Assembly: GCA_015493225.1 (NCBI GenBank)
Contig: WGDO01000087.1
Location: forward strand, 514-64,513
Direction of reading: 5' to 3'
DNA: 64,000 nt
From: Patescibacteria group bacterium
GTDB lineage: Bacteria > Patescibacteriota > Minisyncoccia > Moranbacterales > DUUL01
Under the pieces are notes generated by a model. The model worked only from the letters and a program-made list of their open reading frames with translations, had not been told where the DNA came from and did not search any database. Each line of letters opens with the position of its first letter. Position 1 is the first letter of the stretch. Shown in pieces: positions 3,850 to 55,770 of this stretch. A program made the position numbers and the translations under genes.

Positions 3850-4644
3850 ATGCTTAACTTTGCTGCAATTTGCCCCCATCCTTTAATATTGGCACCAGGA
3901 ATTAAAAGTTCCGAGAAAAATCTTCTACAAAAAACAACCAAATTTATTGATATTTTAGCTAGTGACCTACGAAAAACAAATCCTGACAATATCATCATCA
4001 TATCACCTCGCGGACCAATGCGCTATGATAAGTTTACCATTAATTTTGAAACTTCTTTCAAGGGGAATTTTGTTGAATTTGGTGGAGATGATTATGATTA
4101 TGTTTTCAAGAATAATTTAGAATTATCCCGTCAAATATTACGCTACCTACGTAAAAAACACGCACCCGTAGATATTATCAGAGAATCAAATTTAGATTAT
4201 GGTAGCTTAACTCCTTTAATTCATCTTACTAAAAATTTAGATAAAAAGCCAAAAATAATTCCTCTAACCTTTACCGCCACCGACTGGGATGCTCAATATA
4301 AATTTGGAAAACAGCTCAGCACAATTTTAGAAGAATCAAATGAAAGTAGCGCCATTATTGCCAGTGCCCATTTATCTAATCGACTCACCGAAGAAGCCCC
4401 TGCTGGCTTTTCTCCCTATGGTATTAAATATGACTCTACTATTACTAAACTCCTCCAAGAAAATGAAATTGACAAAATCAAAGCTCTTAATCCGGAATTT
4501 TGTGAAGAAGCCGGTGAAGGTGGTCTGCAGGCAATTTTGATAACCCTCGGCGCCATTGCCCACACTCGTCACTCCTTTCATCAACTCTCCTATGAAAACC
4601 CTCTGGGAACTGGATATTTAGTTGGAAAATGGGATATAAAATAA
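3850..4644 (+). CDS. Class III extradiol dioxygenase (LigB / MEMO-like) family protein
   Basis: 264 aa. The N-terminal AAICPHPLILAPG and the later IIASAHLSNRL resemble the two His-containing motifs of the LigB-type extradiol dioxygenase fold. The function in this organism is unknown. Confidence 0.45.
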   Translation: MLNFAAICPHPLILAPGIKSSEKNLLQKTTKFIDILASDLRKTNPDNIIIISPRGPMRYDKFTINFETSFKGNFVEFGGDDYDYVFKNNLELSRQILRYLRKKHAPVDIIRESNLDYGSLTPLIHLTKNLDKKPKIIPLTFTATDWDAQYKFGKQLSTILEESNESSAIIASAHLSNRLTEEAPAGFSPYGIKYDSTITKLLQENEIDKIKALNPEFCEEAGEGGLQAILITLGAIAHTRHSFHQLSYENPLGTGYLVGKWDIK

Positions 4645-4694
4645 TTAAGAATTTAGAGATTAAGAGTTTAGGAATTTGAAGTTATTTTTTTAGT

Positions 4695-4786
4695 CACCCC
4701 CTGTGTAAAGGGGGTCAAATTTTCTTGTCATTTTTATTTGTCAACTAGTTGACAAATAAAAATGCCAAGAAAATTTGGGGGTTTTT
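4695..4786. repeat. Long GC-clamped hairpin repeat element, family C (cacccccTGTGTAAAgggggtcaaaTT...AAtttgggggttttt)
   Basis: Perfect palindrome tcaaattttcttgtcatttttatttgtcaac-tag-ttgacaaataaaaatgccaagaaaatttg flanked by a ccccc/ggggg mini-hairpin and a GGGGG-TTTTT tail. Other copies are at 11795, 13383 and 33593. Confidence 0.8.
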
Positions 4787-4871
4787 GAGAATTTTAAGTT
4801 TTAAGCTTTAAATCTGTTCATAGAGGTCATAATTCAATAAAGACCACAAAAAATAAATTTCAAACTAAAAA

Positions 4872-7049
4872 ATGAAAAACTACTACCAAATCATCCCCCT
4901 AGTACGACTCCCCTTAACAAAGTCTAATGATTTTACATATCATTCAGATAAAATTATTAAATTTGGTTCGATTGTTAAAATAAATTTAAATAATAAAACC
5001 GTCAGGGGAGTTATTATTAAAAATAAAATTACCAAGCCGACATTTAAAACTTCTCCCATTCTACAAACAATTATTCCCGCTCAAATTACCAAACAACAAC
5101 TTAGATTAGCAAAACTGATATCAAACTATTATCTCACCCCCCTGAGTACCACTTTAAAATTTTTTGCCTTTAAATTAACAAAGAAAGATAACACTAAATA
5201 TTTTGAAAACCTAGTCAAACAAATAGAAAAAATAAACGAATCTAAATGGCAAAAAAAAATTACCTTAACCAAAGAACAAAAAAAAGCCATTAAAAAAATA
5301 ACTTCCCAAAGACCAAATACTGAATCCGCATTTAAAAATAATAACCTCGACAAAAAAAATAAAATACTTTCAACTTTTGACCCCAAGTCATCCAACGGGG
5401 TAAACTTTCAATCTTCAACTCTATTATTTGGCCCTCCCGCTTCCGGCAAAACCGAAGTCATTATTGGGGTTATTAAAAATGTTCTTAGAAAGAAACAACA
5501 AACTTTAATCCTCATTCCGGAAATTTTTCTCTCCTATCAAGAAATTGTACGTTATAGTGGAAAATTTTTAAAAGAAGCAACCAAAGAAGTGGCCATTTTA
5601 CATTCTCAACTCAAGCAATCGGAAATCACAACTATCTGGAATGGTGTTCAAAGTGGTCAAATCAAAATTGTCATCAGTACTCGTATGGGAATTTTTCTTC
5701 CCTTTCAAAACCTTGGTCTAATTATAGTTGACGAAGAACAAGATATTTCCCATAAACAATGGGATACCCCACCATTTTATCACATCCGACAAGTTGCCGA
5801 ATTAATGCAAAAAATTTATACTGAGGTCCAAACAATCTTAGTGTCCTCAACTCCTTCCCTGGAAAGTTGGCATAGATATTCAAATAACCCAAACCACCAG
5901 ATTATTAAACTCCCAGCTCTAAAAACAAACTCCATTACTATAAAACCACCGGAGATAAAATTGGTAGATCTAAAAAAATACTACAAAAAAAATCAACAGA
6001 TTTTCATTTCCAACGAGTTACGATTCGGATTAAAAAATTGTTTAGACCAAAATACCATAGCTATGTTATTGGTTCCTCGTCGGGGAAAAAGCCGTACTAT
6101 AATTTGTCAAGATTGCCACGAAGTACCCACCTGCCCAAATTGCCAAGTACCCTTAGTTCATAGTGAAAATAATTATCGTTGCCTACACTGCGATTTTAAA
6201 ATCTCCAATATTTCCAAATGTCCCCACTGTGGAAGCTTTCGATTACAGGATGTCGGTTTTGGAACAGAAAGCGTTGCTGATAATCTGCAAAATATATTCC
6301 CCTCCGCCAAGGTAGCCATTGCCGATAACACAACTTTCGCCAATAATAATTTTCGACGAAAAATTTTAAAACAATTATATAATAATGAGCTTGACTTTTT
6401 AATTGGCACCTACGGCATCGCCAAGGGATTAGACATTAAGGCTGTAAATTTAGTAGCCATTCTCAATGCCGATAATTGGCCAGGACAAACAGACTTTCGT
6501 TTTGATGAAAATTATCTAAGCACTATTTTTCAATTAGCCGGACGGGTTAACCGTCCCGGTAGTAAACAAACTGGACAATGTCTTATCCAAACCTTTGACC
6601 CTACCAATAGAATTTTCACCTATTTAAAAGACTGGGATTGGCCAGCTTTTGTAAAATACGAACTAAAAAATAGAAAATCATTAAGCTATCCACCATTTAT
6701 ACATCTTCTAAAAATAACCCACAGAAATTACAACCGAGAAACTGTTGAAAAAGAATTAGACAAACTTCACAAAAAATTAGAGAAATACACCCACAACAAG
6801 CAAAGCAATACAACAAGCGAAGCAATCCAACGAGGTGCCAACCGATCCAACAAACAAAACGATAAAACAAACGAAGTGATCCAACTTCTCCCCCCTTATT
6901 TTGGCTACCAAGAAAAATTACGAGGCTATTGGCAAAAAAATCTTCTTCTAAAAATAAAAACTCTACCGATTACCGACAAAAAACTTCTTAAAATTCTAGA
7001 CCTCCCTACAAATTGGAAAATAGACGTCGACACAGAGAATATTTTTTGA
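4872..7049 (+). CDS. priA: Primosomal protein N' (PriA helicase)
   Basis: 725 aa. Walker A GPPASGKTEV, DEEQD Walker B-like motif, and the characteristic Cys4-Cys4 zinc-binding insertion (CQDCHEVPTCPNCQ...CLHCDF...CPHCGS) inside the helicase C-terminal domain. Confidence 0.85.
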   Translation: MKNYYQIIPLVRLPLTKSNDFTYHSDKIIKFGSIVKINLNNKTVRGVIIKNKITKPTFKTSPILQTIIPAQITKQQLRLAKLISNYYLTPLSTTLKFFAFKLTKKDNTKYFENLVKQIEKINESKWQKKITLTKEQKKAIKKITSQRPNTESAFKNNNLDKKNKILSTFDPKSSNGVNFQSSTLLFGPPASGKTEVIIGVIKNVLRKKQQTLILIPEIFLSYQEIVRYSGKFLKEATKEVAILHSQLKQSEITTIWNGVQSGQIKIVISTRMGIFLPFQNLGLIIVDEEQDISHKQWDTPPFYHIRQVAELMQKIYTEVQTILVSSTPSLESWHRYSNNPNHQIIKLPALKTNSITIKPPEIKLVDLKKYYKKNQQIFISNELRFGLKNCLDQNTIAMLLVPRRGKSRTIICQDCHEVPTCPNCQVPLVHSENNYRCLHCDFKISNISKCPHCGSFRLQDVGFGTESVADNLQNIFPSAKVAIADNTTFANNNFRRKILKQLYNNELDFLIGTYGIAKGLDIKAVNLVAILNADNWPGQTDFRFDENYLSTIFQLAGRVNRPGSKQTGQCLIQTFDPTNRIFTYLKDWDWPAFVKYELKNRKSLSYPPFIHLLKITHRNYNRETVEKELDKLHKKLEKYTHNKQSNTTSEAIQRGANRSNKQNDKTNEVIQLLPPYFGYQEKLRGYWQKNLLLKIKTLPITDKKLLKILDLPTNWKIDVDTENIF

Positions 7050-7130
7050 TATAATAAACTTATCTCTTAAAGTATCAACCCCTTAAATTATCAAATTCCT
7101 AATTTCTTAAATTCTTAATCTTCTAATCAT

Positions 7131-7571: not shown

Positions 7572-7582
7572 CACACAAAATG

Positions 7583-11789: not shown

Positions 11790-11794
11790 TCAAA

Positions 11795-11998
11795 CACCCC
11801 CTGTGTAAAGGGGGTCAAATTCTCTCATTACTTTTATTTGTTAACATAGTTAACAAATAAAAGTAATGAGAGAATTTGGGGGGTTTTTCGATTAATTACC
11901 TAAAAACCCCCGAAGCCTGGACAAGTTCTTTTTTAACTTTCTATCGAAAGTTAAAAAAGAACTTGTCCAACCTTCCGCCCCCCCCCCTAAAAAGGGGA
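11795..11998. repeat. Composite repeat: family C hairpin element (11795-11888) followed by family D hairpin element (11903-11998)
   Basis: Family C: caccccctgtgtaaagggggtcaaattctctcattacttttatttgttaacatagttaacaaataaaagtaatgagagaatttggggggttttt. Family D: cccccgaagcctggacaagtt...aacttgtccaaccttccgccccc. Family D recurs inverted at 39645-39730. Confidence 0.8.
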
Positions 11999-12356: not shown

Positions 12357-12452
12357 CTTTGTGCATTATTAATTTTTATAATTCTAGGTTAAAATCTGAA
12401 ATTTAATTCCTACATCTCTAAATGGTAGTTTAAAATTCCTAATTCTTAATTT

Positions 12453-13397
12453 CTAATTCTTAATTATTTTTGCCCATTCTTGCAATGCCTCCTCATAATT
12501 CCGCAAAGGTTTTCTTTTTCTATTTTGCAAAACAGAAACTTCTGCTCTTTTAGCCGGACGAGGAAATTCTTCTGGACCAACCGGAATTATCTTAGTATCC
12601 AATCCGAGTATTTTATACAGAGTTTTCAATCCCTCATACCAAGTAACTGCCCCTTCATTTACAATATGATAAATTCCAAAAGGTTCATTTTCTTCTACAA
12701 TATTTTTACTTTCCAAAGCTAAATCGGGAGCATAGGTAAATTTACTTAACTCATTATCTACCGCCTTTACTTCTTTGTTTTTTTTACCCAGATCCCCCAT
12801 TACCTCAAAAAAACTCTTTTTTCCCAAAGCATTTTTACTCAATCCTCCAAATAATTTTGACAGTCTAATAATGTAATATTTTTCACCTTGCTCCTCCACT
12901 GCTTGTTCTCCTTTGTATTTTGTCCAACCATAGCGACTTAAAGGATTGGGCTGGTCTTCTTCGGAATATTGCCAATAAGGAATAGTTTCTTCTTTACCCA
13001 TATATTGGCAACCATCACAACCACTGCCACAACAATGGGGAGCTCGTTGTCCACTCCGATAAGTCGGTCTTTTACCATCAAAAACATAATCTGTTGAATA
13101 GTGCGCCAAAACAGCTTCTAGATTTTTAGCAATTTTAGCCAGTTCTCCTGGCAGTTCTGTGTTTAAAATTTTTGCCTTGGCATATTCTTCATCATCTTCT
13201 TCACAAGAATCAACCGCATTATAAGCCACCGCATTATAAATTACATCCGGCCAAACTTCTTGAATCTTTTTTCGTAAATTTTCAAAGTCTCGTACATCCA
13301 CATCATCAATGTCCCAAGCAACCACCTCATATTCCGATTTCACCCCAGGCGCCTGCCCCTCGAAGCCATTTTGGCGAAGTGGGGTAAAGGGGGTCAA
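12453..13397 (-). CDS. dTDP-4-dehydrorhamnose reductase-like protein (RmlD family). The ORF lacks the Rossmann GxxGxxG, which lies upstream in another frame across a repeat insertion
   Basis: STDYVFDG and YGWTKYKGE match the RmlD catalytic Y/K region, and NAVAYNAVD matches the RmlD NAAAYTAVD motif. The ORF starts on TTG inside family C repeat copy 13383-13435. The canonical N-terminus MQKILILGSKGMLGSELVRLYGDGF is encoded at 13403-13519 in a different frame and terminates at a TGA inside the repeat. A Cys-rich insertion (HCCGSGCDGCQY) is also present. Confidence 0.55.
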   Translation of the reverse strand: MTPFTPLRQNGFEGQAPGVKSEYEVVAWDIDDVDVRDFENLRKKIQEVWPDVIYNAVAYNAVDSCEEDDEEYAKAKILNTELPGELAKIAKNLEAVLAHYSTDYVFDGKRPTYRSGQRAPHCCGSGCDGCQYMGKEETIPYWQYSEEDQPNPLSRYGWTKYKGEQAVEEQGEKYYIIRLSKLFGGLSKNALGKKSFFEVMGDLGKKNKEVKAVDNELSKFTYAPDLALESKNIVEENEPFGIYHIVNEGAVTWYEGLKTLYKILGLDTKIIPVGPEEFPRPAKRAEVSVLQNRKRKPLRNYEEALQEWAKIIKN

Positions 13398-19753: not shown

Positions 19754-19800
19754 AAAATTTCAAAATCTATCTATCTACTATTCATCTACTTACTACCAGT

Positions 19801-21114
19801 CTACTTACTACCTACTAATTTTATCCATTTTTTATTTTTTAACTCCGCTGGCAAAAATTCCTGCTGAGCATTTTCTCTCTTGCTGGCCTTTGGGGTATAT
19901 TTATAATCTTTTCCATAGCCAAGGTCTCCCATTAATTTTGTGGGGGCGTTACGGATGTGTAATGGCACCGGAAGGTTTCCTGTTCGTTTAATATCTTCCA
20001 TAACATTTTCGTATGCTTCGTATAACGCAATTGATTTTTTACTCTTAGCCATATAAACCGCCGCCTGAGCCAAATTTACACCGCACTCCGGCATCCCAAT
20101 AAATCGACAAGCATCGTAGGCAGCGGTTGCCTGAGGCAAAGCTAAACTATTCGCTAACCCAATATCTTCACTGGCAAAACGAATTATTCGTCGAGCAATA
20201 TAAAGTGGATCTTCTCCCCCCGCCAACATTCTATTCATCCAATACAAAGTAGCGTTCTCATCTCCACCACGCATTGATTTATGAAAAGCACTAATAATAT
20301 TATAATGCTCATCACCAGCACGGTCGTAAAGTAAATTTGATTTTTGAAGAGCTTGTTCAATGTTCTTTTTGGTGATACATTTATCTTCCCTCTTTCTTAA
20401 AGAGGGACTGGAGGGAGATTTCTTTTTTCTAAAATCCCCCTTTAATCTCCTTTTTTTTAAAGGAGGAAGATTATTTGTCAAATCAACTGCCAGTTCCAGG
20501 GCATTTAACATTGTCCGCGCATCACCATTACTCAATTTTACTAAATATTCTTTATTCTTTTTAGTAATTTTTAACTGTCTATTTCCAATCCCTTTATCTT
20601 TATCCTTCAGGGCCTGATTTAAAATAGCTAATAATTCTTCTTCCGTTAAGCTCTCCAAAACAAACGTCCGACAACGAGAGAGTAACGCGTTGTTAACTTT
20701 AAAACTAGGATTTTCCGTAGTTGCTCCGATTAAAATCATCGTACCATTTTCTACGCTTGGTAAAAAAGCATCCTGTTGGGCTTTATTAAAACGATGGATT
20801 TCATCTATAAACAAAATGGTTTTCTCTCCTAGTCGTTTGTCTTTCTCCGCTCGCTCCACAACGTCTCTAATATCTTTAACTCCAGCATTAATAGCACTAA
20901 TTTGATTAAAATTTGCTTTTGTTTCGTTGGCTATAATCCTAGCCAAGGTTGTCTTGCCCGTTCCCGGCGGGCCCCAAAACAAAAGAGAGGGAATTTTATC
21001 CCCTTGGATTAACTCTCTTAAAATTTTTCCCTCACCAACCAAATGTCTTTGCCCCTGAAATTCTTTCAAACTCCTCGGCCTCATTCGATTAGCAAGCGGT
21101 GACTGAGTTGTCAT
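19801..21114 (-). CDS. rarA: Replication-associated recombination protein A (RarA/MgsA AAA+ ATPase) carrying a repeat-derived in-frame insertion
   Basis: Walker [12 protein letters not shown], Walker [13 protein letters not shown], sensor GATTENP, C-terminal MgsA helical domain. A 27-aa basic insertion [27 protein letters not shown] is encoded by a palindromic repeat copy at about 20386-20470. Confidence 0.88.
20386..20470. repeat. Family A/B-type palindromic repeat copy embedded in-frame in rarA
   Basis: ccctctttcttaaagaggg hairpin, then ggagggagatttc, then aaaatccccctttaatctcctttttttttaaaggagg. These are the same building blocks as the intergenic arrays at 36540-36790 and 55531-55630. Confidence 0.65.
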
Positions 21115-23692: not shown

Positions 23693-23965
23693 CACTAAAG
23701 TTCGAATCATACAATCAATACTCATTATTCACTCGTATCATATTCTCCACATTAAAAAAATAAAAAGGGCTTGCTAAATGCAACCCTTTTTATTTTATTG
23801 TGATAATAAATCATAGATTATACCCCTATCTACCCCCTCCCCTACTCTCTATTCTCTACTCTCTACTATCTAGTGTCTAGTGTCTAATATCTAGTACCTA
23901 TCTCACCAACGCTTTTTGCTTAAGAGTAGAAAAATAGCTTGTAAAAGTATTTGAACCATAAAATC

Positions 23966-29583: not shown

Positions 29584-29800
29584 CAAATCCACCCCTAACC
29601 ATTTTTTGTTCACGGTTCACAGTTCACAGTTCACGGTTTATTTTTTAAAAAGTTTCACAAGACAGGTGTTGGAGGGAAACTAGATAAATCCACCCCTAAC
29701 CCCTCCTTTATCCCATTACGCCAAGGCTACGCGGGACAAGCGCTGGAGGGGAACTACTATCTACCATCTACTATCTACTATCTACTATCTATCCCCCAAC
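29584..29800. repeat. Composite repeat block: aaatccacccctaacc unit, (gttcac[ag])x4, long family A unit and (ctactatc)n
   Basis: gttcacggttcacagttcacagttcacgg at 29613-29640. The unit aaatccacccctaacccctcctttatcccattacgccaaggctacgcgggacaagcgctggaggggaac is at 29686-29760. ctaccatctactatctactatctactatct is at 29761-29792 and overlaps the last codons and stop of capA-like 29785-30951. Confidence 0.8.
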
Positions 29801-30951
29801 CCAAACTCCCCTTCCTCAATCTGTTTTTTCACATCATCCCCCACCACCGACCTAGTGGATAGATTTTGTAAAAACTTTCCTCGTTGTTCCCCGGCCATCA
29901 ATTCCAATTCTCCACTTCTTTGCTTAAATAATGGTATCAAAGTAAATTTAACTTGTCCATCTCCCAGTAAAACTCCCACTCCTAAAATAGACCGAACATC
30001 TTCAGAAAAATATTGGTCAAAAACAAAATTTCCCAAAGAATAAAAAATCACTTTATTTTTATAAATTTCAATGGGCTGAACCACATGAGGATGAGCGCCG
30101 ATAATCAGATCCGCTCCGGCGTCAATAAACAGATGAGCCAATTTTTGCTGTCGCTCATTATTAACTAATTTATATTCTTGCCCCCAGTGAGGATAAACAA
30201 TCACAAAATCGCTCTGCGTCTTCAGGGTTTTAATAATCTCAACAATTTGCTCCGGAAAAAAACCAGCAAACTGATTATAATTCACAAAACCAATTTTCCG
30301 TCCTCCCACATTCTTTATAATACTCATCTTAGCTAAATCCAAGGGATCTCCAAAATAACCAATACTATTCTTAGTTAAAATCTCCTCTGTCTGTTCTAAA
30401 CCTTCATTATGAAAATTTAAAATATGATTATTACCAATGTTTACCAAATTTATCCGATTAGCCTCCAAAAAATTAATGGCTTGTTCGGAATCAAAAGTAA
30501 AACGAAAGTGATTGGGATTTTCAACCGGCTGACCAACCGACACCGATGGCTTATCGGTAATCGGACCTTCTAAGTTAACCACATTTAAATCCTGTCCCCA
30601 AAATAACCGCTCCAATTTTTCCGTAAAAAATCCCACACCCTTTCTGTCCATCAAAATCCTATTCTGCCGATCCAACATCACATCCCCAAAAAATAACATT
30701 TTTATTTGTTTTATTTTTTTGTTTTGTTTTATTTTTAAATCATCATCCGTCTCAACCCTACCGGTTAAACTACCTAAAATTGTTTTAACATCATTCTTGT
30801 CTTGATTGTTATTTTCAACCTTCCCAATAATATTACCACCACGCACTATCACATTATTATTTGATAAAATATATTTTCCAAACAAAAAAAGAATAACTAT
30901 TAAAATAGCTAAAATTATTACTATAAAAACATTTCTTTTCTTGATGCTCAT
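29785..30951 (-). CDS. CapA-family (poly-gamma-glutamate synthesis-type) metallophosphatase with N-terminal TM anchor
   Basis: MLFFGDVMLDR and HPHWGQEY...GAHPHVVQPIE calcineurin-like phosphoesterase motifs typical of CapA/PgsA. Confidence 0.7.
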   Translation of the reverse strand: MSIKKRNVFIVIILAILIVILFLFGKYILSNNNVIVRGGNIIGKVENNNQDKNDVKTILGSLTGRVETDDDLKIKQNKKIKQIKMLFFGDVMLDRQNRILMDRKGVGFFTEKLERLFWGQDLNVVNLEGPITDKPSVSVGQPVENPNHFRFTFDSEQAINFLEANRINLVNIGNNHILNFHNEGLEQTEEILTKNSIGYFGDPLDLAKMSIIKNVGGRKIGFVNYNQFAGFFPEQIVEIIKTLKTQSDFVIVYPHWGQEYKLVNNERQQKLAHLFIDAGADLIIGAHPHVVQPIEIYKNKVIFYSLGNFVFDQYFSEDVRSILGVGVLLGDGQVKFTLIPLFKQRSGELELMAGEQRGKFLQNLSTRSVVGDDVKKQIEEGEFGLGDR

Positions 30952-30998
30952 TAAAAATATCTTTAATTACTCCTATCTTAATTATTAATTTCTCACTC

Positions 30999-32456
30999 TT
31001 AATTCTTAATTAATCTCTCTCCCACCAGATAAACATCGCCGGCACCCATGGTTATTAAAAGGTCGTTTGATCGAAGAGTTTTTTGAAAATATTTTATGGA
31101 TTCGGGAATAGTGTGAAGGTTTTTGACTGTTTTGTCGGGATTTTGTTTCTTTATTAAATCAATTAAATCGTCACTGGAAACTCTTCCTTGCTTCTCACGA
31201 GCAGAACCAAAAATATCTAACAGATAAATTTCATCGGCATCCGCAAAACTCTGAGAGAATTCTTCCAACAATGCTTCCGTCCGAGTAAAAGTATGAGGAT
31301 GAAAAATACATTTTATATTTTTATCAGGATATCTATTTTTAGTCGCTTGCAAAGTCGCTTGCACCTCCACTGGATGATGAGCATAGTCGTCTATAATCAA
31401 AACTCCCTTGTATTCTCCTTTTGTTTCAAATCGTCGAGCCGTTCCCTGAAAATTTTGCAAAGCTTGACGAACCTTTTGCTCGTCTAATCCTAATTTTTGA
31501 CAAACCTTAAAAGCACCCATGGCATTCAATAAATTATGCTTGCCAAATAATTGCATTTTTTCTTTGGCTTGACGAATAGCCGGACAACAACCAAATGTTT
31601 TGCCGTGGCAATTATCGTCAGCGCAAAAGCTGTCATCCAACAATACTTCCCTGGCCCCAACTTCATCATAAAAAATTACCTCACATTTTGCTGACTGAGT
31701 TATTTCCACCACATTTTTATCTCCGGCATAGGCCACCAAAAAACCATCTTCCGGAATTCGGGCTACAAAATTTCTAAACACCTGCTTATATTCTTCTTCG
31801 CTCTTAAAAAAATCCGGATGATCATAATCGGCCGAAGTTAAAATCACCGCCCGAGGATTATAATATTGTAATTTATTTTGATATTCATCCGCCTCAATTA
31901 CAAAATACTTTGCAAAGGTCGGGCCTTTGCAACTATCGGTAATTAAAGTATTGCTCTGCCACTCCAAAACCTTTGAGCCAACCAAAGCAGTTAAATTTTC
32001 CACACCTGCTCTTTCCATAGCCGTCGCCAACATCGCCGTAGTAGTTGTTTTACCATGAGTTCCGCACACAGCAATTCCAAATTCTGCTTGATTAAAAACC
32101 ATTCCCAGAGCCTGGGGATAACTCATTATTTTAAAATGCTGTTCAGTAGTCTCCATGGCATATTTTAATTCAGGATTTGTTTCCGGTTGAACTGAAGTGG
32201 AATAAATTATTAAATCTATCTTCCCTACTCCGCCTAAATCATCTTTTATATCCTGAAAACTACTCTCTAAATTTTTCTCATCAAACTTATGAAAAACCTG
32301 AATTCCCTTCTTTTTCAAAACATCATAATAAAAATGATCTCCCTCATCTGAGCCAGTAATATTTTTCCCCTGAGCTTGCAAAATAGACGCCAACGCCGAC
32401 GTTCCCGCCCCTTCGATTCCAATTATATAAATATTTTTAATTGTATCTAGATTCAT
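30999..32456 (-). CDS. murC: UDP-N-acetylmuramate--L-alanine ligase
   Basis: N-terminal IYIIGIEGAGTSALA (Mur ligase Rossmann), central GTHGKTTTTAML P-loop, and the C-terminal Mur ligase domain. It has an unusual Cys-rich insertion (FCADDNCHGKTFGCC). The last codons, IKN-stop, lie in an aattcttaatt repeat. Confidence 0.85.
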   Translation of the reverse strand: MNLDTIKNIYIIGIEGAGTSALASILQAQGKNITGSDEGDHFYYDVLKKKGIQVFHKFDEKNLESSFQDIKDDLGGVGKIDLIIYSTSVQPETNPELKYAMETTEQHFKIMSYPQALGMVFNQAEFGIAVCGTHGKTTTTAMLATAMERAGVENLTALVGSKVLEWQSNTLITDSCKGPTFAKYFVIEADEYQNKLQYYNPRAVILTSADYDHPDFFKSEEEYKQVFRNFVARIPEDGFLVAYAGDKNVVEITQSAKCEVIFYDEVGAREVLLDDSFCADDNCHGKTFGCCPAIRQAKEKMQLFGKHNLLNAMGAFKVCQKLGLDEQKVRQALQNFQGTARRFETKGEYKGVLIIDDYAHHPVEVQATLQATKNRYPDKNIKCIFHPHTFTRTEALLEEFSQSFADADEIYLLDIFGSAREKQGRVSSDDLIDLIKKQNPDKTVKNLHTIPESIKYFQKTLRSNDLLITMGAGDVYLVGERLIKN

Positions 32457-36539: not shown

Positions 36540-36790
36540 ATTGGTTAATAAATCCACCCCCAACCCCTCCTTTACCAAAGGAGGGGAACCAAAGAAAATC
36601 CACCCCCAACCCCTCCTTTTTTAGCAAAGGGGAAATTTTCCACAGCTTCCACCCTTTGTAAAGGGGAGATTGAGGGGGGATTTTAAAACTAAATCCACCC
36701 CTAACCCCTCCTTTACAAAGGAGGGGAAATAAGGAAATCCGCCCCTAATCCCTCCTTTATTAAAGGAGGAGAACAAAAAGGAGAAACTAA
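36540..36790. repeat. Tandem array of 5-6 palindromic units (aaatccacccctaacccctcctttNNNaaaggaggggaa, plus the cccccctttgtaaagggggg attgagggggg variant)
   Basis: Units abut directly, each about 40-45 nt. Each is a stem-loop with a 10-bp GC-rich stem and contains an AAGGAGG Shine-Dalgarno-like core. Confidence 0.85.
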
Positions 36791-36802
36791 AAAAAATACT
36801 CT

Positions 36803-37111
36803 ATGAAATTTACTCTTCAAAACAAACTAAGTCACAACACCGAATATGTTATGCGCAAAGCCGGCTATACATATATTTTTGATAAAATTTCCCAACATGG
36901 CAGTTTTGTCCATAGACTTACCGCTGAACGCTATCCCCGTTTTCATTTATACATCACCGAAAATGAACAAGGAACTACCTTTGATCTTCATCTTGACCAA
37001 GCCAGGTCTCGCTACCAAGGACAAAAAGCTCATCGAGCTGATTATGAAAGTGAAGAAGTTAAGGCAGAGTTGGCGAGGATTTATTATGTTATTAAAGAGT
37101 TTTTAATTTAA
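36803..37111 (+). CDS. Hypothetical small protein
   Basis: 102-aa ORF immediately downstream of the repeat array. No confident family. Confidence 0.4.
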   Translation: MKFTLQNKLSHNTEYVMRKAGYTYIFDKISQHGSFVHRLTAERYPRFHLYITENEQGTTFDLHLDQARSRYQGQKAHRADYESEEVKAELARIYYVIKEFLI

Positions 37112-37374: not shown

Positions 37375-37906
<532 letters not shown>

Positions 37907-38764: not shown

Positions 38765-38910
38765 GCTATTTCCTAGCTTCCCCCCTTTGTAAAGGGGGGA
38801 TTGAGGGGGGATTTTAAAGATTTTAAAACTAAAAAACTAAATCCACCCCTAACCCCTCCTTTATCCCACTACGCCTAAACGGCTACGCAGGACAAGCGCT
38901 AGAGGGGGAA
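38765..38910. repeat. Family B plus family A palindromic units
   Basis: cctagcttcccccctttgtaaaggggggattgaggggggatttt followed by aaatccacccctaacccctcctttatcccactacgcctaaacggctacgcaggacaagcgctagaggggg. Confidence 0.8.
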
Positions 38911-38912
38911 AA

Positions 38913-39578
38913 TTAGAACTCTACTCCACTTTCTCTAGTATAATCCAAAATAGAAACTCCTGTCTGAATATGAGCCTCGGCACTATCCGTTGGGTCTCCA
39001 GATTGTAATCCTTTCTTATAATAAATATCCACATTTATTCTCACAAAACCACGGTGAGGATCATCACTGGAAACATCAGTATTTAAAACATTAAAAGTAC
39101 CAGAAACATCAACCTTACTACTTCCTAATATATCAGTTGCCAAAGAAGAATTAATACCATCACAATCAACTATAGCATTATAAGGACCCGCATTTTGAAT
39201 AATATTACCCGCTCCAATCTGTAGAGCATAAGATTTCACTGTCATTTTTTTATTGCTTCCATTATCAACAAACTGATAACAATATTTAGTAACTGTCAAA
39301 TTATCTATAAAAAACAAAGATTGACCATCAGGAGACACAATAACATTAGAACTAGTCCTCACCTTTTTAGCCAAGTCATCAATGGCATAACGAGCATTAT
39401 CCATTGTTTCTTGCATCGCTTGAGACTTTGTACTAGCTTTAATGGCATTCACAGAAAACATCACCACTCCACCGATAATCAAAGTAAAAATAGCCATGGC
39501 CACTACTACTTCTATTAAGGTAAATCCACCCCTACCAAAATCTTTATCTTCTTTTTTAAAAATTGAAACCTTAGTCAT
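38913..39578 (-). CDS. Prepilin-type (class III signal) pilin/pseudopilin
   Basis: GFTLIEVVVAMAIFTLIIGG cleavage/methylation motif after a short basic leader. Confidence 0.75.
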   Translation of the reverse strand: MTKVSIFKKEDKDFGRGGFTLIEVVVAMAIFTLIIGGVVMFSVNAIKASTKSQAMQETMDNARYAIDDLAKKVRTSSNVIVSPDGQSLFFIDNLTVTKYCYQFVDNGSNKKMTVKSYALQIGAGNIIQNAGPYNAIVDCDGINSSLATDILGSSKVDVSGTFNVLNTDVSSDDPHRGFVRINVDIYYKKGLQSGDPTDSAEAHIQTGVSILDYTRESGVEF

Positions 39579-39644
39579 TTAAATTATTTATATTTTAAAA
39601 TTACGGATTATACGAAAAACCATTAATTCTAGATTGCCCCCTTT

Positions 39645-39730
39645 TTAAAGGGGGCGGAAGGCTGGACAAGTTATTTTTTTTACTTTCAGTAGAAAGTTAA
39701 AAAATAGCTTGTTCAGGCTTCGGGGGTTTT
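39645..39730. repeat. Family D long hairpin element (inverted relative to 11903-11998)
   Basis: gccccctttttaaagggggcggaaggctggacaagtt...actttcagtagaaagt...agcttgttcaggcttcgggggttttt. Confidence 0.8.
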
Positions 39731-39761
39731 AAAAATCAATAGTTTTGTGTATGCCCCAAAA

Positions 39762-43620: not shown

Positions 43621-43882
43621 GCAAATCTCAAGATACAAGTTACAAGATACAAACAATTTTCAATAACCAAATCCCAAACTTTTCAAACATTGGTTATTGG
43701 GATTTGTGATTTGTTTGTTTCTTGGTGTTTGTATCTTGGAAATTTATAAATTTGAATCCACCTCTAACCCCTCCTTTATCCCACTACGCCATCCCACTTC
43801 GCTAAAGCTACGAGGGACAAGAGGCTATGCGGGACAAGCGCCGGAGGGGAACTACTACCTACTACCTACTACCTACTACTTA
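43621..43882. repeat. Composite: family F long palindrome plus family A unit plus (ctactacc)n
   Basis: caagatacaagttacaagatacaaacaa...ttggttattgggatttgtgatttgtttgtttcttgg... then gaatccacctctaacccctcctttatcccactacgcc...ggacaagcgccggaggggaac, then ctactacctactacctactacctactact. The last supplies the stop of pilC. Confidence 0.8.
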
Positions 43883-45084: not shown

Positions 45085-45119
45085 TTTTTTATATTATTTT
45101 TTTATATTAGTTAAGTGTT

Positions 45120-45340
45120 TTAAATCCCCCTTCAATCCCCCCTTTACAAAATGGGGAAACTGTAAACACACCCCTTCTCAAAAAGAAGAAACTAAAAATG
45201 GATTTCCTTAGTTCCCCTCCGGCACTTGTCCCGCGTAGCCTTGGCGCAGTGGGATAAAGGAGGGGTTAGGGGTGGATTTCCTTAGTTCCCCTCCTTTGTA
45301 AAGAAGGGGTTAGGGGTGGATTTTAAAAAATAAATAATCC
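45120..45340. repeat. Family B and A palindromic units in reverse orientation
   Basis: aaatcccccttcaatcccccctttacaaaatggggaaa is the rc of the family B unit. ggatttccttagttcccctccggcacttgtcccgcgtagccttggcgcagtgggataaaggaggggttaggggtggattt is the rc of the long family A unit. Confidence 0.8.
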
Positions 45341-54737: not shown

Positions 54738-55496
54738 ATGCCTATACCATTTTTTAAGCTTAAAAAATATCTTGCCAATCTAATTTTCCCCACTTTTTGT
54801 ATCCGCTGTCATCATCCCGGAAGAATCATCTGTGATAATTGTCTAAAAACAATCAAACCCTTAAGTATTCAATTATGTCCTCTTTGTGAAAAAACCGTTA
54901 CTATAAATGGAGAAGTTTGCCGTCCTTGCCGAAAGCGCTTTCATCCGGCCATTGATAATTTACTGGTAGCCTCAGATTACAAGAATAATTTATTAGCCAA
55001 AAGTGTTCATCTTTTAAAATATAAATTTATTCGAGACCTAGCACCGTCCTTGGCGCAAATTTTAACCATCAGCCTCAATAAGTTTAAACTGCCCACACCT
55101 GATTTTATCCTGCCAATCCCTCTGCACCCTCGTCGTCTTCGCTGGCGCGGTTTTAATCAAGCAGAACTATTATCCCAAGGAGTATCCATTAATCTATTAC
55201 CTGGCCTAACAATTCCAATCTTAAATGATTTAATCATTCGTCAAAAATATACTCCCTCTCAAAAAAATATTAAAAACTATAAAGCTCGTCAAGAAAATCT
55301 TAAAAATGCCTTTCAGATCAATTCTGGATTTGACTGGCCATTAAATAACTTACCAAAACAAAACCTAACCGGAAAAAATATTTTAATCATTGATGATATT
55401 ACCACCACCGGTGCCACTATTTTAAATTTCGCCAAAGAACTAAAAAAGCTTCACCCCAAAAGTATTTCGGCAATTGTTTTGGGAAGACAATCGTAA
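54738..55496 (+). CDS. comFC: Competence protein ComF (ComFC-type phosphoribosyltransferase)
   Basis: N-terminal double zinc-ribbon (CIRCHHP...CDNC ... CPLCEK...CRPCRK) and C-terminal PRTase motif ILIIDDITTTGATI. Confidence 0.85.
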   Translation: MPIPFFKLKKYLANLIFPTFCIRCHHPGRIICDNCLKTIKPLSIQLCPLCEKTVTINGEVCRPCRKRFHPAIDNLLVASDYKNNLLAKSVHLLKYKFIRDLAPSLAQILTISLNKFKLPTPDFILPIPLHPRRLRWRGFNQAELLSQGVSINLLPGLTIPILNDLIIRQKYTPSQKNIKNYKARQENLKNAFQINSGFDWPLNNLPKQNLTGKNILIIDDITTTGATILNFAKELKKLHPKSISAIVLGRQS

Positions 55497-55500
55497 TTGT

Positions 55501-55770
55501 TAGTTCACAGTTCACAGTTCACGGTTCACAGTTTCTTTCCTAGCTTCCCCTCTTTGCAAAGGGGGGATTGAGGGGAATTTCCATGGCTTCCTCCCCCCTT
55601 TGTAAAGGGGGGATTGAGGGGGGATTTTAAGAATTTTAAGTTTTAAATTTTTCTGCCCCAGACGGACCAGCCTGGAGCTAGAAATTTCACGAATTAGTTG
55701 AAATCCACCCCTAACCCCTCCTTTGAGAAAGGAGGGGAACTACTTATCTACTATCTACTATCTACCCCTC
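55501..55770. repeat. Composite: (gttcac[ag])x4, two family B units, one family A unit and (ctactatc)n
   Basis: gttcacagttcacagttcacggttcacag. cctagcttcccctctttgcaaaggggggattgagggg and cccccctttgtaaaggggggattgaggggggatttt. aaatccacccctaacccctcctttgagaaaggaggggaactacttatctactatctactatctac. The last overlaps the ppaC stop. Confidence 0.85.

Follow-up and report, generated by a model that had tools for sequence, protein, structure and literature searches.

The window considered here is a stretch of 64,000 nucleotides (64 kb) from a Patescibacteria group bacterium (contig WGDO01000087.1 of assembly GCA_015493225.1, positions 514 to 64,513), in which several genes end within tandem arrays of a seven-nucleotide unit containing the stop codon TAG. 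The arrays represent a real and statistically solid feature and are best filed, in a patescibacterial lineage, with the known stop-containing intergenic heptamer repeats and with the repetitive extragenic palindromic (REP)-like hairpins that abut gene ends. The explanation that we favour, and hold to be the probable one, is that they are intergenic heptanucleotide simple-sequence repeats (SSRs) of the short tandemly repeated repetitive (STRR) or long SSR class, some of them fused to a REP-like, GC-rich hairpin (hereafter, H-unit); they would have originated by slippage, and their boundary would have been set by selection on the protein.

The window has a GC content of 33% and a strong negative GC skew, with nearly all genes on the minus strand, and includes the RNase P RNA gene and four tRNA genes. 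The named homologues of its proteins belong to Patescibacteria, mostly to Candidatus Moranbacteria. The data covered this one contig of the source genome, which is metagenome-assembled, together with about 140 kb from relatives, whose syntenic loci were compared and whose proteins are 72–93% identical to those of the window. Tandem repeats of the window were detected with Tandem Repeats Finder (TRF) and with an exact-period scan.

TAG-bearing heptamer arrays at gene ends

The original prediction, made from the sequence of the window, described the repeat as (ctactatc)n. The arrays are real, but the period of eight is wrong: according to both TRF and the exact-period scan, the unit is the heptamer CTACTAT, which reads ATAGTAG in the gene sense. 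As predicted, TAG is found in all three frames of the gene strand, since seven is coprime with three, and (ATAGTAG)n gives TAG in each frame within three units; the strand opposite to the gene sense contains zero stops. All the TAG arrays of the window read TAG-rich on the minus (gene) strand. The 14-mer CTACTATCTACTAT, corresponding to two units, has 14 matches in the window when up to two mismatches are allowed, versus 0.36 expected.

The gene identities given in the prediction were correct (PGA_cap, T2SSF/GspF, family II pyrophosphatase, MgsA/RarA, MurC, RmlD-like, and def). Moreover, the open reading frames (ORFs) ending at 29785 (capA-like), 37490 (hereafter, ORF37490), 43876 (pilC), 55762 (ppaC), and 19801 (rarA) all terminate, as had been proposed, on a TAG located within the array. 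A sixth TAG-type array lies about 60 nt past the TAA that ends the upstream ORF. Contact with a sense stop is thus seen for five of the six, and under random placement in the permitted space, the probability of at least five out of six is 1.5e-5.

When the relatives are included, seven of about ten independent TAG-type sites of the clade are located at sense-strand gene ends, six of these being flush with or overlapping the stop. A further gene-end site found in the relatives is that of Lnb_N, where an array lies at the stop in two genomes. The exceptions, also in the relatives, are three TAG-type arrays: one antisense upstream of nrdD, one in a divergent 5′ region, and one in the middle of a spacer. 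The last 40 nt or so of Lnb_N persist in the window (23905–23965); the gene is intact in the relatives' loci L138 (2800–3591) and L140 (11315–12106), with the array beginning at its stop. The sixth array of the window is the leftover of the Lnb_N gene-end site after the deletion of the gene.

A scan of a genome collection with the degenerate 21-mer CTACYAY × 3 retrieved at least 120 loci, with arrays from many phyla; the analysis of ORF ends at these loci was crude, and the ORF calls are unreliable in GC-rich genomes. In 11 inspected loci from other phyla (cyanobacterial, Bacteroidales, and Saccharibacteria), no long ORF enters the array; therefore, the flush-with-stop pattern is not general for this unit.

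Stop codons and C-termini compared with relatives

The arrays had also been proposed to donate the last codons of the genes, which raised the question of whether native C-termini were replaced. The comparison with orthologues supports the donation, in that the arrays supply the stop together with zero to four terminal codons, but not a replacement. Indeed, compared with repeat-free relatives, the native ends are kept, with ORF37490 and the CapA-like, PpaC, and RarA proteins within one to two residues of the native length; the stop has moved by no more than one codon from its native place, while the last codons have turned into array frames. In at least four genes, the native TAA has become TAG, and this TAG derives from the array itself, because TAA is the usual stop of these genes in relatives lacking the array. 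Read in its two non-zero frames, TAGATAG gives exactly the tails R, DR, and DSR, each directly followed by the stop; in frame zero, the stop comes at once, as seen for pilC and ppaC.

About 60 PilC homologues end in ...YQVAMSIK at 401–404 residues (typically 402); therefore, the array donates no codon to PilC. At this gene end, the TAG is shared by the 92% relative, in which it precedes an unrelated spacer of 20 nt and then a hairpin instead of an array; the 93% relative has TAA, directly followed by a different heptamer array, (WTAGTAA)n; and more distant relatives are repeat-free. The product of ORF37490 has 138 residues both in the window and in a 78% relative lacking the array, its end having passed from AAA TAA to AGA TAG. 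PpaC ends in ...FEG in the window vs. ...FEAM in a relative. As for the CapA-like protein, the window has ...GEFGLGDR, two array-bearing relatives have ...LDSR and ...LDTR, and an 81% relative without array has ...EIGVGL followed by TAA.

The number of units at the same site also varies: counts for the capA array are 5.4, about 3.5, and at least 5 in the genomes compared, and the ORF37490 array has 5.4 units in the window vs. about three (3.4) in the relative L133. The arrays are young, and both their copy number and their unit sequence are variable at the same site among relatives. One might suspect an artefact of assembly or gene calling, given that contigs of the relatives break within these repeats. 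Nevertheless, the same arrays are present at orthologous sites in independent NCBI, JGI, and ENA assemblies, with plausible differences in copy number, and the ORFs in question are full-length when compared with curated profiles, so an artefact is hardly credible.

The case of rarA is different. In a relative without array, the gene ends with ATT AGT AAA TAA (ISK), and in an 87% relative with ATT AGT AGG TAG (ISR), followed by the array. In the window, a 1-nt deletion just upstream moves translation into the frame ending in LVGSK, and the next TAG of the array stops it two codons later. The array-less rarA end of locus L138, ATTAGTAAATAAATAA, resembles a proto-repeat of the array in L136. In another relative (L137, GCA_026990205.1, positions 1690–1760), a GC-rich hairpin is inserted at the very end of rarA and adds nine codons (KAGPIKSSG, then the stop); this is a clearer repeat-donated C-terminal tail than any in the window.

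According to one explanation, the TAG arrays would be kept by selection as a fail-safe, stopping ribosomes whichever frame they are in once read-through or a late frameshift has occurred, while the hairpin would stabilise or define the 3′ end of the mRNA. The presence of TAG in all frames of the gene strand only, the prevalence of sense-strand gene ends among the TAG-type sites (seven of about ten), the capping of the rarA frameshift after two extra codons, and the stable hairpin following the array in four cases are all consistent with it. However, three to five units far exceed the needs of termination, and the next in-frame TAG lies six to seven codons past the stop, which makes the array a poor tandem stop. 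Furthermore, the same genes lack the array in close relatives, the three exceptional arrays described above do not lie at sense-strand gene ends, and the hairpin has no U-tract, with no enrichment of terminator-like sites. Such a selected role is possible but unnecessary and fits poorly with the exceptions, the array-less relatives, and the spacing of six to seven codons; we regard it as unlikely.

Regarding the CapA-like protein, several 76–81% relatives (P0246, P0247, and P0249) possess a form of about 605 residues with an N-terminal Memo domain. In the window, the Memo/LigB-like gene (3850–4644) is separate and lies about 25 kb from the CapA-like gene (29785–30951). A truncation of a CapA-Memo fusion by the array was ruled out: in the fused relatives, the Memo domain is N-terminal and the C-termini align.

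Hairpin units and other period-7 repeats

The TAG arrays are part of a wider set of repeats (Table 1). Period 7 accounts for 13 of the 24 TRF arrays of the window, and exact arrays of at least three units number five at this period vs. zero to one at the other periods tested (5–11). Twenty-four out of 25 period-7 rows fall in non-coding DNA, which represents about 14% of the window, and more than ten different heptamer units are involved (GTTCACA, CAAGATA with inverted TTGTATC, AATTTTA, AATTCYT, and others). Heptamer repeats appear to fill much of the non-coding DNA in this Moranbacteria-like lineage. About ten arrays lie within 7 nt of a gene 3′ end vs. two near a 5′ start. The stop codon is overlapped by those whose sense strand has stops in all frames; two flush arrays of which this is not true (ACAAGAT at 7575 and AGTTCAC at 55502) start 3–5 nt beyond the gene's own stop.

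Table 1. Heptamer arrays, related tracts, and H-units of the window, with their positions and the genes that they adjoin.
Feature	Position	Strand	Context
(ATAGTAG) × 5.4 array	29754..29791	-	Holds the capA-like TAG stop (29785-29787) and last two codons, GAT AGA
(TAGATAG) × 5.4 array	37459..37496	-	Holds the ORF37490 last codon, AGA, and TAG stop (37490-37492)
(TAGTAGG) × 4 array (CTACTAC variant)	43852..43879	-	First TAG is the pilC stop (43876-43878); zero codons supplied
(ATAGTAG) × 3.6 array	55740..55765	-	First TAG is the ppaC stop (55762-55764)
Degenerate TAG/TAA heptamer array	19768..19817	-	Between convergent ung and rarA; encodes the last ~5 codons of rarA (LVGSK) and the stop after the 1-nt frameshift
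Degenerate TAG-type array	23842..23904	-	Beside the 3′ remnant of the deleted Lnb_N gene; no contact with the upstream PGM ORF
(GTTCACR) × 4.4 array	29608..29638	+	Far side of the composite intergenic block holding the capA array
(AGTTCAC) × 4.6 array	55502..55533	+	Sense strand stop-free; begins 5 nt after the TAA of gene 54738-55496
(AATTARG) × 4.6 AT-rich array	12434..12465	-	Overlaps the rmlD-like last codons (IKN) and TAG stop; stops in all frames of both strands
Weak AT-rich period-7/21 tract	30963..31020	-	Around the murC stop (30999-31001)
Degenerate TTAAGAA-type tract	4643..4680	+	Begins at the TAA of gene 3850-4644
AATTCYT-type array	7082..7128	+	Between gene 4872-7049 and def
H-unit, long structured loop	29688..29751	-	Joined to the capA array through GTAG-TT
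Two short-loop H-units in head-to-tail tandem	37377..37456	-	Directly downstream of the ORF37490 array
H-unit, long loop	43756..43849	-	Downstream of the pilC array
H-unit, short loop	55703..55737	-	10-bp stem, about -16 kcal/mol
H-unit, long loop	38841..38907	-	Few nt past the TAA of pilin-like gene 38913-39578; no heptamer array
H-unit cluster, head-to-tail	36552..36771	-	Upstream of the RNase P RNA gene
Two H-units in opposite orientation, head-to-tail	45214..45321	+	Between pilT-like gene and pilC; absent from the 92% relative

The H-unit has the structure CCCCTCC(TTT)-loop-(AAA)GGAGGGG, followed by TTAGGGGTGGATTT, the loop being either short or long and structured. Twelve copies are present in the 64 kb, versus zero expected, in both orientations and often in head-to-tail tandem. 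Four of the TAG arrays are fused to an H-unit through GTAG-TT. These four H-units are the ones tagged with GTAG; of the others, three have another NTAG (TTAG or CTAG) and the remainder TTGG, CTTG, CTTA, or TTTG. The array RNA is predicted to be an unstructured single strand, and the fold z-scores of array plus hairpin are unremarkable.

The hairpins had been suggested to serve as transcription terminators, and this was not borne out. Like a Rho-independent terminator, the H-unit is a GC-rich hairpin directly after a gene; unlike it, the stem is not followed by a U-tract on either strand (TTAGGGGTGGATTT comes next instead, or AACTAC on the other strand). The H-unit therefore does not qualify as a canonical terminator, and a consensus scan gave no excess of terminator-like sites (11 vs. 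10.7 expected). No H-unit hairpin scored as a terminator, the sole scan match in the repeats being a weak pairing of two adjacent H-units (45262–45289).

Searching Rfam with gathering and E-value thresholds retrieved no family for the H-unit, but only the RNase P RNA, tRNAs, and chance hairpin matches. Scans of viral contigs for the hairpin flank and for the hairpin-array junction gave zero matches; a metagenome scan for the junction gave five, only one of which (L133) is a true relative.

The H-units share several traits with the GTAG-tagged REPs, hairpins that lie less than 20 bp from ORF 3′ ends and often contribute the TAG stop through their termini (Di Nocera et al. 2013, PMC3733652). These REPs, over 90% of which bear GTAG, unpaired, at one end, embed a GC-rich palindrome of 20–40 bp and mostly form head-to-head or tail-to-tail dimers resembling bacterial interspersed mosaic elements (PMC3733652). 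Similarly, the H-unit is a short GC-rich stem-loop present in many copies downstream of ORFs, between co-directional or convergent genes; TAG can come from the unpaired GTAG, with an added dinucleotide, at one of its ends, and its loops are variable, some being long and structured. Unlike GTAG-REPs, H-units carry GTAG in only a third of the cases, are arranged head-to-tail, and have the tag expanded into a heptamer array; moreover, no gene for the cognate REP-associated tyrosine transposase (RAYT) was seen within the window. With GTAG on four out of 12 units and a head-to-tail arrangement, the H-units fall outside strict GTAG-REP membership.

This resemblance raises the question of whether the H-unit is a mobile element, i.e., a GTAG-tagged palindrome moved by a RAYT-like tyrosine transposase. 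The array would then be its GTAG tag, or its target, in reiterated form, and insertion would be directed to gene ends that contain TAG. In agreement with this idea, the 12 copies are found where none is expected, the hairpin and array blocks are insertions relative to the 92% relative, and the layout (GTAG, unpaired TT, a stem of 7–10 bp, a variable or long loop, and a conserved 3′ motif) fits the GTAG-1/2 REP families (PMC3733652). Conversely, the four GTAG tags are all on array-fused units, the head-to-tail arrangement is rare for REPs, and TAG arrays without any H-unit exist at rarA, at Lnb_N, and at pilC in locus L142. Furthermore, the window encodes no Y1 transposase but only an IS110 fragment, and viral contigs hold zero copies. 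Mobility of this kind thus appears improbable. The IS110 fragment is the C-terminal part of a transposase of that family (PF02371), located at the contig start (187–639, plus strand), and is the sole transposase trace in the window.

A cyanobacterial locus (L019, Symploca sp.; 2229–2247 and 5060–5190) matches the H-unit flank ATCCACCCCTAACCCCTCC exactly over 19 nt, this flank itself consisting of two AGGGGTK heptamers; the same locus also holds (TAGGTGG)n and (AATTCTT)n arrays resembling those of the window. A second hairpin family (G-unit), consisting of CCCCCCTTTGTAAAGGGGGG followed by ATTGAGGGGGGATTTT, is present in both orientations at 38770–38815, 55540–55630, and 45110–45150, and its layout is that of the H-unit (hairpin, second G-run, ATTT).

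The second motif of the original prediction, aattcttaatt, is barely above chance: searching the window for AATTCTTAATT with up to one mismatch gave 23 matches vs. 13.9 ± 3.7 expected. As described, it overlaps the stops of murC and of the rmlD-like gene, but only the latter has a true heptamer array; it also overlaps the stop of gene 3850–4644 and, as stated, precedes def. The array at the rmlD-like end has a period of 7 in the window and of 8 in L138, where the protein ends in IIENLRI instead of IIKN. The tripeptide IKN is indeed shared by the C-termini of MurC and the RmlD-like protein, but its derivation from the repeat was rejected for MurC, whose LIKN end is native (relatives have LIKN, LIKNF, LIDK, or LLKF, and the match to the equivalog profile reaches position 448 of 449). 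Among 58 ORFs, 0.4–0.9 pairs sharing a C-terminal tripeptide are expected by chance, and one shared pair agrees with this.

Other features of the intergenic DNA and of the relatives' loci are worth recording. Contigs of relatives end within the capA heptamer array and the CAAGATA palindrome (end of L141, 2751–2787; end of L123). Other long perfect palindromes occur in the intergenic regions 11790–11990, 39640–39740, and 4690–4790, for example ggacaagttcttttttaactttc...gaaagttaaaaaagaacttgtcc, or tcaccccctgtgtaaagggggtc followed by a long AT-rich hairpin. A 102-residue ORF without family match (36803–37111, plus strand) lies between the H-unit tandem and the AATTTTA arrays; it is conserved in L133, where it is convergent with the ORF37490 orthologue. 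Lastly, the anaerobic ribonucleotide reductase NrdD of L137 (4041–7124) carries an intein (PF14890).

Known heptamer repeats and the origin of the arrays

All-frame-stop heptamers overlapping stop codons (PMC4679880) and GTAG-REPs donating TAG (PMC3733652) are already published for other bacteria. The former are the TAACTGA direct repeats of Beggiatoaceae, cyanobacteria, and Bacteroidetes, which contain stops in all three frames and in 13 sets overlap the upstream stop codon (MacGregor 2015, PMC4679880). Like them, the window arrays are period-7 tandems, mostly intergenic, with all-frame stops in one orientation only. The overlap is also comparable, with partial to two full TAACTGA units over the upstream stop and window ORFs reading zero to five codons into the array. 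They differ in the unit (ATAGTAG/TAGTAGG), in the host, which is a patescibacterial lineage, and in their position: TAACTGA repeats lie a few nucleotides before the next start, whereas the window arrays are 150–400 nt from it, with a GC-rich hairpin or a long spacer in between. By their unit and by their placement with respect to start codons, they do not belong to the TAACTGA family.

For the TAACTGA repeats, a function as binding sites for an RNA- or DNA-binding regulator has been proposed. If this applied to the window arrays, it would be in keeping with their predicted unstructured state in the mRNA and with the recurrence of one unit at unlinked genes. On the other hand, the genes concerned have no common function, the unit sequence drifts freely at the same site between relatives, and the arrays are not near start codons; regulatory binding is thus very unlikely.

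Of the cyanobacterial STRR and G-rich heptamer SSRs (GGGNATC/GGGGAYT), the G-rich repeats are enriched at distances of up to 50 bp from stop codons (Rehm et al. 2015, PMC4692102). As in these bacteria, a single genome holds many heptamer units, which lie between genes and vary in copy number; unlike the G-rich SSRs, the window's units are AT-rich and stop-rich, do not form G-quadruplexes, and touch the stop codon, and its genome is streamlined, with 33% GC. The arrays show the traits by which STRRs are defined, i.e., at least three head-to-tail copies of 7 nt, units found in non-coding DNA at multiple loci, and copy-number variation among relatives (capA, ORF37490, and pilC ends).

In the SSR explanation favoured here, the arrays would arise and change copy number through slipped-strand mispairing, in a 7-nt register, and through exchange between copies. 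They may either nucleate on gene ends of the type A(A/G)A-TA(A/G) or come along with the hairpin. An array would then spread only until selection on the protein halts it, and one with stops in all frames could overwrite the stop and a few dispensable last codons, leaving the protein neither longer nor truncated. Such tolerated overwriting would place TAG-type arrays flush with, or a few bases inside, gene ends and in the sense orientation. Moreover, the orientation bias needs no purpose-built cassette, because only arrays with sense-strand stops can overlap an ORF end. The prediction of all-frame stop cassettes stands as far as the all-frame TAG, the supply of the stop, and the capping of the rarA frameshift are concerned; a dedicated cassette is not needed to account for the orientation and fits poorly with the antisense and off-gene-end arrays of the relatives. 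The effect of having stops in all frames, although real, is probably a by-product of selection.

Some points weigh against the SSR explanation. The TAGATAG unit and the GTAG-TT-CCCCTCC junction recur at four unlinked loci; the sharing of one unit and one junction is better fitted by the copying of a module than by independent nucleation, so the model of a REP-like mobile module stays alive. In addition, the preference of slippage for 7 nt is left without explanation, and a selected role is compatible with all the tests performed here. Lastly, the orientation statistics derive from the single contig and the relatives' loci described above, and gene orientation and replication direction are confounded, because nearly all genes lie on one strand. 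A stronger proposal is that the TAG arrays are actively made at, or targeted to, stop codons, either by a GTAG-recognising REP/RAYT-like activity that reiterates the tag or by selection, in a lineage whose translation apparatus is reduced, for termination that does not depend on the frame. The arrays would then constitute a dedicated gene-end module, with an all-frame stop and a 3′ hairpin; we consider this proposal doubtful. Such a repeat-making or repeat-targeting activity, if true, would be of more interest.

From a practical viewpoint, these repeats break short-read assemblies, and those who annotate or compare such genomes should bear in mind that repeats can be the cause of C-terminal differences and of the use of TAG. 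The rarA gene is a clean natural case in which a terminal frameshift is buffered by a tract with stops in all frames. As for the organism itself, a streamlined genome of the candidate phyla radiation, too, carries dense, fast-evolving intergenic repeats of the cyanobacterial and proteobacterial kind, which change the stops of housekeeping genes from TAA to TAG, and rewrite their last few codons, without harm to the genes.

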